From Eledone cirrhosa (taxonomy: Eukaryota), in assembly GCA_964016885.1 (NCBI GenBank), contig OZ024741.1, positions 322,958,001 through 323,022,000 of the forward strand: a stretch of DNA of 64,000 nt. Reading direction: 5' to 3'. Position 1 is the first letter of the stretch, and each line of letters begins with the position of its first letter. Position numbers and translations under genes: made by a program. Below, piece after piece: positions 3,018 through 58,504 of the stretch. The notes beneath the pieces are model-generated. The model saw nothing but the letters and a program-made list of their open reading frames with translations, was not told the origin of the DNA and did not search any database.

Positions 3018-3078
3018 TATTCTATTATATATATTTCAAAGGTACCAAAACTTTGGTACGCTCTCATCAGATAAAATA
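3018..3078 (-). ncRNA. Type-I minimal hammerhead ribozyme, family H1 copy a
   Basis: Minus strand reads tattttat-CTGATGA-gag c gtaccaaa gt tttggtac c ttt-GAAA-T ATAT ATA^-atagaata: core, stem I, stem II and palindromic mini stem III all present. Confidence 0.8.
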
Positions 3079-3420
3079 CAAAGTTTGTTTATAAATATTG
3101 ACATAACCAGGAAGAAGAACTTAACGGTTCAAGTTTTCCTGGATATATATATAAGTAGAAGGGGTTTTTAATTTGTTGGAAGTCCGACAAATATAAATGT
3201 TTATAACTGATATATTATAAACAAATATTATATTATATTATATTATATTATAAACAAATTTTAAACAACTAATAATCGTAAATACACGTACTATTAAGAT
3301 ATATACTTAGAATATATTTCCCTCAAATTAACGCTATATGAGTTTTTATTCATCTTCTCTTGTTTCTTTCTTCTCTCTCTCCCTCTCTCTCGCTCTATTT
3401 TATCCTTCTCCTCTTAACTC

Positions 3421-3489
3421 TTCTCTCTCTCTCTCTCTCTCTCTCTCTCTCTCTCTCTCTCTCTCTCTCTCTCTCTCTCTCTCTCTCTC
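3421..3489. repeat. (CT)n microsatellite
   Basis: Direct reading. Confidence 0.95.
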
Positions 3490-3653
3490 CATAGTCGTTT
3501 AAATAAACGGTTGTTTTTCAATTATTTACATATTCATTTGCATATTCACACATAAGTATGAAAAATCCCTAATATATTTCCACTTTCCAGTGAATATCCA
3601 ACCGAAAAAGTATGATTTTCATGGGTATGTCTCTATTTATAAAACAAACTTTG

Positions 3654-3716
3654 TATTTTATCTGATGAAAGCGTACCAATGTGTCTTGGTACCCTTGAAA
3701 TATATATAATAAAATA
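3654..3716 (+). ncRNA. Type-I minimal hammerhead ribozyme, family H1 copy b
   Basis: tattttat-CTGATGA(3662-3668)-aag c gtaccaa tgtgtc ttggtac c ctt-GAAA(3697-3700)-T ATAT ATA^-ataaaata; predicted cleavage after 3708. Confidence 0.85.
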
Positions 3717-4797
3717 AATATGGTTTTATAAATATAGTTTCCATTTATTTAATATCATTGTATATATATATATATGGGGGCGGGTATCACCCACGGCTTC
3801 AAAAAGGTGAACAATACAATTCTTTCGCTCGCTCATCTGCAACATTTATGTAAATTTATTTTAAGATACCACAAACGAAGCTAACAAGATAGTAAAAGTT
3901 ATCAAACAGAAGAACAAGAACTAGTTAAAACTGAAATCAATGCTGAAAAATACAATTTGATACATGCAGAATGAACATTAAATGTAGAACATTCACTTTA
4001 ATATGCAGAGAAGTATTAAGAAGTAGTCAGTATTTATCAAATTTGTCTGTCAATTGTCAAAAGAGATGTTACGCCAAATGAAAATTTCATTTTCTAAACG
4101 ATTATACAATATCATATTTCAATTTTTTTAGGTTTTAGTTTTATCTTACAACTTAAAATATTCATAAAATCCGTTTATGAAGATTTTATTCTTGGCATTA
4201 GTAGATGACGTCGCTAAGATATCATTTTCGTTATATAGTTCCTTGTATTTGGTCTAATAAATACTTGTTTGTCAGGAGTGGTACTATAAATTATGATACG
4301 TAAGTTGTAAATATAATGTGGCGAAGAGGTCGATAAATAAAGTACCAGTTCAAAACTGGAGCGATTCTTCCTCCATATCTCTTTTTTAACTCTCTCTCTC
4401 TCTATATATATATATATATATATATATATTCTTTTTTTTTTCTTTTGTATTACTTGTCTCACTAGCTCTTTTTGATTACCAACTGTAAGGATTACTCAAT
4501 ACTTCCTCGAGTCTCTCGTGCTTACTAGCTCTATACAGACGTTTAAATTGAATAAATAAATAGAAGAAATCGGTTGTGTTCCGACTTGGAGAGGGATGGG
4601 TTCATAATAACACCCCTGCGACTCCATCACGGGTTAATAGTTCATGCATGGAGGATGGGGGTTGTAATTAGAACGAAGAACAGCAATAAGCTGCAATGGG
4701 TGAAGTTGGAGTTGACTTCGGTCGGGATTGAGTATTGGGGGATGTTAATTGCGTTAACCCTTTACAGAATCTTCAAACAGTCTTGAAGTCACACTGT

Positions 4798-4988
4798 AGA
4801 AATGAGTTGCGACGTCACTGATGTCAAGCTTTGCCTTTCCCTTGGACAACATCAGTGGCGTGAAGAGGGGACTGGTATGCATGGGTGACTGTTGGTCTTC
4901 CACAAACAACCTTGCCCGGACTTGTGCCTCAAAGGAACACTTTGTAGGTGCAAATCCCATGGTCGTGATCTAAGGGGTCTTTATACCC
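4798..4988 (+). mobile_element. SINE family A, 3' part
   Basis: aaatgagttgcgacgtcactg...cttgcccggacttgtgcctc...ggtgcaaatcccatggtc shared with 8170-8460, 19575-19680, 45390-45476 and 62380-62690. Confidence 0.8.
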
Positions 4989-5225
4989 GTGTAGCAATTA
5001 ACTCTACTTCTTGTTATATATTTATACCGTTTTAGAATAAAACATCCACTGTCAGCGAAAATTAAAGCATCCTTGTCATAAAATGTTAAAGTTAAAGTCT
5101 GTTTCAAGCTAGAAGACTTATCAGGCTGGAGAGTATCCTGAGTTCATTGGCCTTAAGCGAGTATAAGGCACGAAATCGAGTGATTGTGAAAGGCACTCCT
5201 TAACCAAACAACCATACATACGCCT

Positions 5226-55111: not shown

Positions 55112-55502
55112 AGTAACATGTGCTTACGCCGTATTTGACTATATAGAATTAGTCTGTTAGTTGGGATTTAAAAAAAAAACCTCTGAATGAAAAAAAGAGG
55201 ATGAGAACTGACGTACATGGGACACGAACCGACATCTTTGGTTTCCCGGATCAATATGCTACCATTACATCAACACGCTACCCATGCTTCCTTCCATTCA
55301 ATTAGAAATTATATAACCATAGCAGGTATATAAATATGGAGATACAAAGGAAGCTTTCTTTACAAAGGGCTAGCGAATTTGAAAATTAGGTAGTAACATG
55401 TGCTTACGCCGTATTTGACTACATAGAATTAGACCTAACTAACAGACTAATTCAATGTAGTCAAATACGGCGTAAGCACATGTCACTACCTAATTTTCAA
55501 AT
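55112..55502 (-). mobile_element. tRNA-like-gene-carrying mobile unit, copy 2 (1.15 units plus inverted segment)
   Basis: 41-bp direct repeat at 55112 and 55392 (period 280); inverted piece at 55434-55502. Confidence 0.8.
55209..55279 (-). tRNA. Decayed tRNA-like cloverleaf (loop CC-GGG-AA)
   Basis: Colinear with 20588-20658; several stem mismatches. Confidence 0.45.
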
Positions 55503-55859
55503 GTGTGTGTGTGTGTGTGTGTGTTGTACCTACATATATAAGTAATGTGTTTTGTGAAAGACCTGTAGACACCAATGCATGTAAGTTTCCCCCACTTCAG
55601 GCAAATAGGGATATATATATATATATGTATGTATACGTACATTCATATATGTATACAGACGTACAGTAGCATGCATATATATATATATATATATATATAT
55701 ATATATATACAAACGAACAAAGCGGGCGTTATAATAAGCGTCCGCTAAACTGATACGTACATATATGTATGTGTACCTGTATGTATATATATATATATAT
55801 ATATATATATATATATATATATATATATATATATATATATATATATATATATATATATA

Positions 55860-56628
55860 TATATACATACAGGTACACATACATATATGTACGTATCAGT
55901 TTAGCGGACGCTTATTATAACGCCCGCTTTGTTCGTTTGTAAACAAACTGAACAGTCTGAATTTATGCCGTACGGTGTTAAGGCAACGACGTCACCTTTT
56001 TGTTCATTTAAGTAAGTGCCGTACTAAGAGTGAGAAATGAAATTTCGTTTTCATTTTATTACAACTTATCGTTTTCGGTACGCCTGGCCGAACTCACTCG
56101 ATATGCAAATTACGCTGCTCAGCCGTTAATTTTCATAAGGAAAGTATATACTTTCGAACGTTCAACCATCTGGCAGAAGGGTATACGGTGCTGATGATAG
56201 CTAACAAGCTTGAAACTAGTACATCGTTCCTGTGTCAGTGTTGAACAAAAAGGTGACGTGGTTGCCTTAATACCGTATGGCATAAATTCAGGCTGTTCAG
56301 TTTGTTTACAAACGAACAAAGCGGGCGTTATAATAAGCGTCCGCTAAACTGATACGTACATATATGTATGTGTACCTGTATGTATATATATATATATATA
56401 TATATATATATATATATATATATATATATATATATATATATATATATATATATATATATATATATATATATATATATATATATATATATATATATATATA
56501 TATATATATGCATGCTACTGTACGTCTGTATACATATATGTATGTACGTATACATACATACTTACATTTAAGTAAGTGCCGTACTAAGAGTGAGAAATGA
56601 AATTTCGTTTTCATTTTATTACAACTTA
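55860..56628 (+). mobile_element. Penelope-like pseudo-LTR relic with inverted and direct terminal duplications
   Basis: Inverted repeat 55860-56005 / 56243-56390; direct repeat 56005-56068 / 56566-56628; contains hammerhead H5. Confidence 0.6.
56185..56227 (+). ncRNA. Type-I minimal hammerhead ribozyme, family H5
   Basis: acggtg-CTGATGA(56191-97)-t agct aaca agct t-GAAA-C TA GTA^-catcgt; palindromic ACTAGT stem III; U.U at the base of stem II. Confidence 0.75.
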
Positions 56629-57134
56629 TATATATATATATATATATATATATATATATATATATATACAGTATTTTCCGTTGTGTTGTAATATAAATAT
56701 TACACACAGTAGATTGACAGCTCACGTAATCTTGAGATTTATTACATAATCACACACAAGAAGAAATTGCTGAATAACAGAATTGAACGAACATTATTCT
56801 GCCGTCACCGAACTAAAACCCTTTTTTCCCACTACAAGCCGAATATTACATAAAAGAGGGACATCCCCCCAACTATATAAACCTCAATCTAGTTAGAAAA
56901 ATATAAAAACAATCTCTTCTCAACATATATATATGTATATTAATAACCTTAAATTACCACACTAATAATGGAAAGATATGCTGATGAGAATAGGTGCAAA
57001 TATGCGATAATGAATGTGTCTAAAAGCGACCATAAGTATGTATATATATGTGAAAATGTATATAAATAAGTAAATATATATATATGTTTGATGTGTATAG
57101 TTAGATGTAAGTGTATTCATGTATTAAAGTGCTT

Positions 57135-57292
57135 ATATATATATATATATATATATATATATATATATATATATATATATATATATATATATATATATAT
57201 ATATATATATATATATATATATATATATATATATATATATATATATATATATATATATATATATATATATATATATATATATATATATATAT
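57135..57292. repeat. (TA)n microsatellite, longest of many (also 45918-46010, 50119-50203, 55783-55865, 56383-56509, 58249-58399)
   Basis: Direct reading. Confidence 0.97.
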
Positions 57293-58435
57293 AAATATAT
57301 ATGTATATATATACACATAGACTAGAGTATGTATGTATATATGTGTGTGTCTATACGTGTGTATATAAAGATAAGTTGAGTATGAAAATGTATACACATG
57401 AACGCGTATGTATGTACATGAATACATGTGTGTATATATATATGTATGCATGTATATATGTATGTAAGTATGAACATGTTACTATGTGAATGTGAGTATA
57501 TGTATTTTGTAGAGGTGTACAAATATGTTTGTGTGTGAATGCGTGGGCGAAAGGATACGTACACTTGAAAGAAAAATTTAAGTCTGAATGTTAATTAAGT
57601 GCAAACACAAAACCAACCACGCGAATCTTTACTATCTCTAATCCTTCTATAGATTTAGAAAAATAACCAATAATATATTCTATAAAAATGTCAAAACAAC
57701 AGATGGGAATCTAATTACTCACTGCCACCAAAAATTCTCACTGCTATCAAAAAACCACTCCCTCAACTATTCTTCTAACAACTTCACCCCTCCCTCCTAA
57801 TATTCTCTATAAAAACCAAACAGGTCCTCAGTAATATTACTCTGATGAAATGACAGTAGATAATAACATTGAAATATTGAATGTCTGCATAACTAATTGT
57901 TTCTATTTTAGGCACAAGGCCAGCAATTACCCAGTACATTACTGGTACTTTATTTTATCGACCCCGTAAGGATGAAAGGCAAAGTTAACCTCAGCGGGAT
58001 TTGAACTGAGATCATAAAGGGACGTAACTCTATGCTTCAAAGCATGGTGTCCGACTCTCTACCGATACTGCCAAAACTAATACTTTGTAGATAGCAGCTG
58101 TTTTCAGGTTATGTAACTGTTATAGAAACACGTGTCAATAAATTCCTTTCAACTAAACTGTATCCATTCAAATCTTTTCTATATATATATATTAAGTAAG
58201 TAAAAAATTTTTTAAAAAAATTTTTTAAAAATGATTTTCTTATTTTACATATATATATATATATATATATATATATATATATGTATATATATATATATAT
58301 ATATATATATATATATATATATATATATATATATATATATATATATATATATATATATATATATATATATATATATATATATATATATATATATATATAA
58401 TATAAGATCAAAAGATGGTTAAAGGAGTTCCATAT

Positions 58436-58504
58436 ATTTTATTATGCGCATTTCAAAAACAAACATCATCAAACAATAATATTTGTGTTTTCATCAGATA
58501 AAAC
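58436..58504 (-). ncRNA. Type-I minimal hammerhead ribozyme, family H6
   Basis: Minus strand gttttat-CTGATGA-aaacacaaatatt..atgtttgttttt-GAAA-T GCGC ATA^-ataaaat; its 3' half is duplicated inverted at 58566-58637. Confidence 0.75.

Follow-up and report, generated by a model that had tools for sequence, protein, structure and literature searches.

Hammerhead ribozymes in (TA)n tracts of the Eledone cirrhosa genome: probable ends of Penelope-like elements and a retrozyme bearing the same insertion scar

A 64,000-nucleotide stretch of the Eledone cirrhosa genome (assembly GCA_964016885.1, contig OZ024741.1, positions 322,958,001 to 323,022,000 of the forward strand; hereafter the window, with coordinates counted from its first letter) contains a series of hammerhead ribozyme motifs in inserts that end in or near (TA)n repeats, raising the question of which elements brought them there and what part the ribozymes play in insertion. 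The original prediction, made from the letters of this sequence, saw in them a ribozyme-processed, non-autonomous retroelement system. Our analysis makes it probable that the motifs are pseudo-long terminal repeats (pseudo-LTRs) of Penelope-like elements (PLEs) of the Hydra clade and of the Neptune/Nematis type, 5′-truncated in (TA)n, together with one retrozyme likely inserted by the same enzymes.

A type-I hammerhead descriptor (CUGANGA, stem II of 9–120 nt, GAAA, stem III of 4–8 nt, UH and stem I of at least 4 bp) recovered eight motifs in the window, the same eight for which intact cores had been proposed, and matched no further site. Dinucleotide-shuffled versions of the window held on average 0.115 (200 global shuffles) or 0.13 motifs (200 shuffles within 1-kb blocks), with a maximum of two. 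The core (C3 U4 G5 A6 N G8 A9 / G12 A13 A14 A15.1 / U16.1 H17) is complete at all eight sites, the cleavage positions suggested earlier (3708, 24432, 36641, 55054 and 56221) agree with those given by the descriptor, and clustering yielded six families, the number anticipated (A, A2, B, C, D and E; membership as listed below). Stems I, II and III can pair, with covariation between families, except that the site at 24325 has lost its native stem I; the 9-bp stem I noted there is fortuitous, because this copy breaks off at the core, its 5′ strand being supplied by the inverted arm. Stem III, described as palindromic throughout, is self-complementary at six of the eight sites, whereas that at 36555 has one U-U mismatch, departing from the family C norm CAATTG, and that at 19290 (GAAC, with a CUU triplet) is not palindromic. 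An AATAAA or ATTAAA signal does follow within 10 nt at five of the eight sites, which belong to just three of the six families, and the inserts span 100–600 bp as stated, apart from the longer ones of families C (35331–36774) and D (55624–56627).

With a wider descriptor, a ninth site surfaced at 59071–59121 (minus strand), whose stem III is longer and whose core reads CAGAAGA (U4A; family F); sites of this type numbered seven in an even genome sample (60 evenly spaced 10-kb stretches, 600 kb in all, from the 3.0-Gb assembly) and none in 10 shuffles. Other CUGANGA sites of the window (20310, 40868, 51731, 57831, 57842 and more) did not satisfy the descriptor. Of the 244 Rfam E-value matches to the window, the 150 listed included no hammerhead family, and no hammerhead reached the gathering score in 12 loci. 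The sites and the insertions around them are as follows (predicted cuts; clade labels are putative).

3018–3078, minus strand: hammerhead of family A (Hydra-clade PLE pseudo-LTR), predicted cut after 3026; insert about 2971–3145, short 3′ end in (TA)n
3654–3716, plus strand: hammerhead of family A, predicted cut after 3708; insertion about 3153–3763, inverted long tail (3153 to ~3215, by eye) and direct arm to the short end
19290–19332, plus strand: hammerhead of family E (Neptune/Nematis-type PLE), predicted cut after 19328; inverted arm from 19126 with a degenerate core, direct arm to about 19478
24325–24440, plus strand: hammerhead of family B (Hydra clade) with an 82-nt stem II, truncated at the core, predicted cut 24432; insertion 24181–24487, inverted long tail (24181–24330) and direct arm to the short end
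36555–36647, plus strand: hammerhead of family C (Hydra clade) with a 61-nt stem II, predicted cut 36641; element about 35331–36774, long end in (TA)n
54998–55062, plus strand: hammerhead of family A, predicted cut after 55054; insert about 54923–55108, short end
56185–56227, plus strand: hammerhead of family D (tandem non-LTR retrozyme without an open reading frame), predicted cut after 56221; insertion about 55624–56627, inverted arm with the short end and direct arm of more than one unit with the long end
58436–58504, minus strand: hammerhead of family A2 (Hydra clade), predicted cut after 58443; insertion about 58405–58725, motif arm with the short end and opposite arm (58565–58725) with the long end and half a core
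59071–59121, minus strand: hammerhead-like motif of family F, U4A core CAGAAGA, 4-bp stem III with a 7-nt loop, monomer-type; insertion about 58961–59175, long end left and short end right
59205–59333, no strand given: family E stub consisting of the two ends alone (inverted long tail and short end), without a ribozyme

What are these inserts fragments of? No PLE open reading frame (ORF) was found in the window. Elsewhere in the genome, families A, A2, B, C and E, which account for seven of the eight sites first noted, run upstream into ORFs for a reverse transcriptase (RT) with a GIY-YIG endonuclease, and the window copies are therefore truncated ends of autonomous elements. The proposed Penelope-like origin is thus borne out by the very extension that had been suggested as a check, while the claim of a non-autonomous system is not supported for these families: seven of the first eight sites, as well as the ninth, are ends of autonomous PLEs, 5′-truncated in (TA)n. 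The family A motif precedes the start codon of an RT/GIY-YIG ORF in two genomic loci (L162 and L245) and recurs 1.4 kb after the stop; the motif type at 54998 is the one found there in the 5′ pseudo-LTR, immediately before the ORF start, and in L245 the motif is repeated, in damaged form, after the 3′ untranslated region (UTR), so that a pseudo-LTR stands on both sides. Family A also lies 1.0–1.4 kb past endonuclease ends in L094, L126 and L129, with the subfamily of the 3018 motif ~1.0 kb after a Hydra-type endonuclease in L126. A2 is located ~1,050 bp downstream of a Hydra endonuclease in 13 of 25 loci; B belongs to a complete short-arm/ORF/long-arm insertion (L232), and C flanks the ORF of another complete insertion (L246), in which the endonuclease lies upstream of the C-type UTR. 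Family E follows the endonuclease stop by ~200 bp in four loci (L094, L100, L127 and L128) and also lies downstream in L237 and L249, and F is joined through a shared UTR of ~1.0 kb to a Hydra endonuclease upstream (L221, L237 and L252). The 3′ UTRs measure 0.85–1.4 kb in the Hydra-clade families here.

The Hydra clade is defined by RWK, DKT, a CxCX5C linker, CxxC, CxH and a C-terminal endonuclease without CCHH (PMC8557442). The ORF of family A has RWR, DKT, CNCRNKSNC (CxCX5C), CDLC (CxxC), CRH (CxH) and a C-terminal endonuclease, that of A2 has DKT, CNCRIKNKC, CNLC and CLH, and that of F has the linker, CDLC and CKH; B and C were placed solely by tblastn likeness to the A protein. Insertion in (TA)n and a canonical hammerhead, likewise Hydra-clade features, are present, with F deviating at U4. 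Neptune elements are characterised by a DKG-like motif, a CX2-5CxxC linker and CCHH in a C-terminal GIY-YIG domain; family E has a CIDKKCIIC linker and C/C/H/H residues, with DKS in a related ORF, which does not tell Neptune from Nematis. Judged by these motifs and likenesses, A, A2, B, C and F would belong to the Hydra clade and E to the Neptune/Nematis type. A Pfam search with three of the Hydra ORFs gave no match, and all the homologues of the partner protein that bear a name come from Octopus (37–42% identity). Among the assignments discarded were "Nematis-like" for the Hydra-type ORFs, as the supplement of Craig et al. 2021 pointed to Hydra; a chimeric or endonuclease-less element in L091, as other inspected copies have the endonuclease; and a two-ribozyme element in L251, which proved to be a nested insertion.

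The motifs are not peculiar to this window. In the even sample the type-I descriptor found 58 against 1.1 in shuffled sequence, and (TA)5 lies within 250 nt downstream of 57 of these, compared with 18% of random positions, in line with the proposed linkage to (TA)n. Exact-pattern searches of the genome counted 79,901 matches for the A/A2 group, against one for its control pattern, as well as 24,001 for D and 16,837 for F, whose controls matched nowhere, setting a floor of 120,739 motifs, or one per 25 kb. As the even sample is about twofold rich in A (31 matches) and F (seven matches) and holds no exact D copy, we scaled the remaining families by this factor and estimate a total of ~190,000 motifs, about one per 16 kb; an extrapolation to 2.2–2.8 × 10^5 from the even sample was dropped, since the exact count predicts 16 A-type motifs where 31 were seen. 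The suggested spacing of about one per 8 kb therefore describes the window (nine per 64 kb, about twice the genome estimate) but not the genome. Published loads amount to about 9,000 hammerhead copies in Xenopus tropicalis and 4,000 in the coelacanth (PMC4209133), more than 6,000 in a coral and up to 120,000 in the 28-Gb axolotl genome; our floor of one per 25 kb exceeds these figures, though the descriptors differ. Single (TA)n tracts host nests of several PLE families (L033, L038, L042, L046, L047, L050, L117 and L156).

The most telling feature of the insertions is how their ends combine. Copies of every family stop at (TA)n with one of two fixed 3′ ends, here called short and long, which lie 59–173 nt from each other, and in inverted insertions, the arrangement proposed earlier, a short arm is almost always paired with a long one. 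Pairs were counted in 239 loci at inverted insertions without an inner (TA)n run, leaving out duplicates and 19 B loci obtained with a two-ended query. For A, B, C, E and F, 62 of 64 pairs were short plus long, where about half would be expected, the exceptions being an arm that continues into the ORF and two separate insertions in the window. A separate count gave 14 of 14 for A2, whose short end was not resolved among the 239 loci, so that the six coding families combined reach 76 of 78; the even sample by itself gave 14 of 14. Inspection of D by eye found the same combination in all 10 resolved pairs from 13 inverted-arm loci and in 11 of 11 among 20 further loci, and D arrays, too, have one short and one long boundary, with unequal unit numbers per arm. 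In 23 of 24 pairs the two arms resembled each other more closely than the median copy of their family, and in 14 they were the best or tied best match. A genome search with the A2 tail gave no match. The pairing rule suggests that both DNA strands are primed, with two fixed positions in the RNA as starting points. The presence of the same scar on retrozyme D is likely direct genomic evidence for its mobilisation by Penelope enzymes.

Two side observations concern these inverted insertions. They form near-perfect hairpins of 100 to >1,000 bp (19126–19331 and 58405–58725 in the window; L129:5900–8400 and L140:4975–6976), which, if transcribed, could feed RNA editing or silencing as double-stranded substrates. 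Separately, the sequence at 33845–33999 belongs to an abundant family of stubs inserted in (TA)n (also in L007, L010, L011 and L030), with two fixed ends and inverted arms like those of PLEs and no hammerhead core near the ends; its motif had 64 matches in the loci examined and 13 in the even sample.

Family D is the one for which the retrozyme part of the original prediction held up, A, A2, B, C and E being ends of coding elements. Its unit of 420–520 bp, with internal (TA)n, no ORF and one type-I hammerhead, occurs in arrays of two to seven units, and the best 40 copies are 98–99% alike; by its sequence, D qualifies as a non-LTR retrozyme. ABAB alternation of two unit variants, a pattern that fits a two-unit circular template, is seen in two of four long arrays (L211 and L215). 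In three genomic D dimers, the double-hammerhead fold is predicted to lie 1–3 kcal/mol above the minimum and to be 5–7 kcal/mol better than two monomer folds, and the predicted D circle is 69–71% paired. Contigs from four sequencing runs of undefined kind held abundant D-like sequence in two runs (one organism) and one such contig in another. Because no partner ORF for D was identified, its mobiliser is deduced from the insertion scar alone; D was likely inserted by PLE enzymes acting in trans.

Do the ribozymes define the ends of what is inserted? Every window copy spans the cleavage site and extends 50–210 nt past it (further in D), insert ends do not coincide with the predicted sites, and 5′ starts fall within 5 nt of the cut in 2 of 32 A copies and 1 of 27 A2 copies. 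As copies span the cut and their starts do not cluster there, the templates must have been uncut or re-ligated, leaving the idea of ribozyme-processed inserts unsupported. Stem III is self-complementary in 12 of 15 multi-locus families, a known dimer signature (PMC4209133; PMC3088659) that favours the dimer-type action proposed for it; since the sequences of these stems differ, selection on the ribozyme in the source elements is indicated. When folded with ±250 nt of context, the sites at 19290 and 58436 are buried in inverted-arm hairpins (differences in free energy, ddG, of 51 and 43 kcal/mol, respectively), while five window sites can fold within ~4.5 kcal/mol of the minimum. In L020, L048, L105 and L106 there are additional hammerhead families whose stem III is long (14–19 nt from GAAA to UH) and which the short descriptor misses.

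To account for these observations, we envisage an RT/GIY-YIG protein, likely a dimer, that would nick both strands of a (TA)n run and prime one cDNA at each of two fixed RNA sites downstream of the ribozyme, each DNA strand having a start site of its own on a shared or a linked RNA. Both cDNAs would usually stall early and be joined head to head; owing to this early stalling, most insertions would preserve no more than the final few hundred bases, with the ribozyme among them. The template RNA would be uncut, or re-ligated, at the ribozyme, which is predicted to cut only when two copies in a tandem transcript pair their palindromic stems III. For D, such dimer cutting may free units of 420–520 nt, sometimes dimers, which likely circularise; circles copied more than once round by the PLE enzyme in trans would yield arrays. 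Solo stubs are likely passengers. The stricter form of this scheme, in which two-site, two-strand priming is obligate, circular D RNA (at times as two-unit circles) is inserted in trans, and F reached 16,837 copies either because U4A is active or because cleavage is dispensable for coding PLEs, strikes us as an even call.

Several points weigh against parts of this account. The ORF links of B and C come from one locus each (L232 and L246), and clades were assigned by motifs and by-eye likeness to printed sequences rather than by a tree. A cruder first pass over all families gave 100 of 115 short-plus-long pairs, and an automated D count gave 20 short plus long against 19 short plus short, although inspection resolved these 19 rows into 17 of TA-rich noise and two with mis-paired ends. 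No partner ORF for D has come to light, as said, and ABAB alternation, seen in only two of the four long arrays, could also stem from DNA duplication. Self-cleavage at N-U-H is throughout a prediction read from sequence, and the fold energies are nearest-neighbour predictions; published PLE hammerheads, dimers included, are slow to cut (PMC4209133), and eight of nine Xenopus retrozyme dimers remained uncut (bioRxiv 2026.07.22.740005). A strict need for cleavage is further called into doubt by U4A in all of the 100 listed among the 16,837 F matches and by U4C in 5 of 20 B copies.

Could the motifs instead mark six independent non-autonomous families, akin to short interspersed elements (SINEs) or retrozymes, with RNA ends set by ribozyme cleavage? 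The short inserts, the want of a PLE ORF in the window and the protein-free, tandem structure of D would fit such families, and two of four copies with a full ORF begin near the cut (about −6 in L126, +14 in L248). The continuation of five families into RT/endonuclease ORFs largely refutes the first half of this idea, and the second half sits badly with the rarity of 5′ starts at the cut and with the spread of F despite its U4A core. Moreover, the fixed 5′ end of B, on which a since rejected unit-length element had been based, is an inverted long tail. We consider this explanation improbable.

Little credence, to a similar degree, attaches to an origin of the inverted arms and D arrays after insertion, by DNA fold-back repair and unequal crossing-over. 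(TA)n is unstable, nests of several families are common, and ABAB alternation would fit a duplicated dimer; fold-back, however, would copy the same end, yet in 76 of 78 pairs each arm stops at a fixed position of its own, and D arrays have a short end on one side and a long end on the other, the number of units per arm being unequal. Least probable of all, and by our reckoning very unlikely, is that the host retains the ribozymes to cut read-through transcripts. With more than 120,000 near-intact motifs some will fall in introns or UTRs, and the five foldable window sites would be compatible with such a use, but youth explains the intactness (the best copies are 93–99% alike in A and D), in solo copies stem III has no partner in cis, inverted-arm hairpins bury two of the window copies and one is without stem I, and no host gene was identified in the window.

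PLE insertion thus remains the probable source of these ribozymes, and much of its machinery has precedents: PLE pseudo-LTR hammerheads, Hydra elements in Octopus, mollusc retrozymes and the tail are already published. Hydra-1_Obim of Octopus bimaculoides has a hammerhead and prefers (TA)n (Craig et al. 2021 supplement, PMC8557442). With it and its clade, the elements described here share the C-terminal GIY-YIG domain, DKT, CxCX5C, CxxC, CxH, the (TA)n target, a type-I hammerhead near the 3′ end, an inverted 5′-truncated arm and a tail at one end. They differ in that the printed Hydra-1_Obim ribozyme motif is unlike the sequences here, in 3′ UTRs of 0.85–1.4 kb that make the elements longer than the typical <3 kb, in tails of 79–173 nt against the 30–40 nt described, in RWR in place of RWK in family A, and in having at least five very-high-copy families and one U4A core. 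Metazoan PLE pseudo-LTR hammerheads, as reported in PMC4209133, resemble ours in being type I with a short palindromic stem III and mostly solo copies from truncated PLEs, with many families per genome, whereas the load of at least 120,739 copies and stems II of up to ~110 nt set E. cirrhosa apart. Like the animal non-LTR retrozymes (PMC7229834; bioRxiv 10.64898/2026.07.22.740005), D is a protein-free tandem unit with one hammerhead each, ranging from monomers to multimers, with a predicted highly paired circle; it differs in its unit of 420–520 bp with internal (TA)n and in the two-end tail and inverted arm of PLEs, which those papers, as far as available to us, do not report.

The closest mechanistic parallel is the Poseidon PLE of Anolis (PAc), whose protein is predicted to be a dimer and for which both strands were nicked and extended in vitro, with reverse transcription from two internal sites bounding the tail and insertion independent of the ribozyme (PMC11167929). 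Two RT starts downstream of the hammerhead, an AT-rich target and an uncut RNA template are common to both; PAc belongs to another clade, and in E. cirrhosa many genomic insertions show the two ends paired, with one on each arm. For O. vulgaris, PLE expansions have been published (PMC13282606), in an account that, as far as available to us, does not mention ribozymes. Our literature search found no cephalopod hammerhead load of this size, though the families may already be catalogued as repeats; no short-plus-long rule given as a count and no PLE scar on a retrozyme, though the bioRxiv supplements may list end structures; and no fixed U4A family, though Figure 5 of PMC3088659 or the same supplements may list U4A.

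The remainder of the window is likewise rich in repeats. An 8.5-kb array of a 21-bp unit (10560–19095; ~400 copies) with long Thr/Asn-rich open frames is either a minisatellite or a mucin-like exon, and further tandem arrays with 38-bp and 65/131-bp units occupy 28366–29318. At 37650–42753 (minus strand) lies a broken and partly duplicated non-LTR retrotransposon that retains pieces of AP endonuclease, RT and zf-RVT, and RT fragments also occur at 63153–63761 and 5306–5776. Two copies of a ~770-bp repeat (46048–46813 and 48437–49203), 99% identical, with two parts swapped in order, are separated by ~1.6 kb. A tRNA-Ala-like sequence (20587–20659 and 55209–55279) sits within a repeated element (20474–20715 matches 55151–55380) that is probably a tRNA-derived SINE. 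Another SINE-like repeat of ~200 bp (23446–23591, 25324–25571, 32707–32905, 35026–35252, 43696–43906, 57888–58085 and others) is very abundant, with ~90 matches in the 600-kb sample.

The elements described here are of known kinds, and their value is that of a test bed. What mobilises animal retrozymes has so far been debated on the grounds of co-occurrence and of sequence trees (Li et al. 2026, bioRxiv 10.64898/2026.07.22.740005); the PLE scar on family D would add a mechanistic link, testable with one RNA and one protein. With the strict pairing of short and long ends, the "tail often at one end" of earlier descriptions becomes a rule that sets limits to the model of PLE integration, and the U4A family, together with the uncut templates, bears on the role of the PLE hammerhead.

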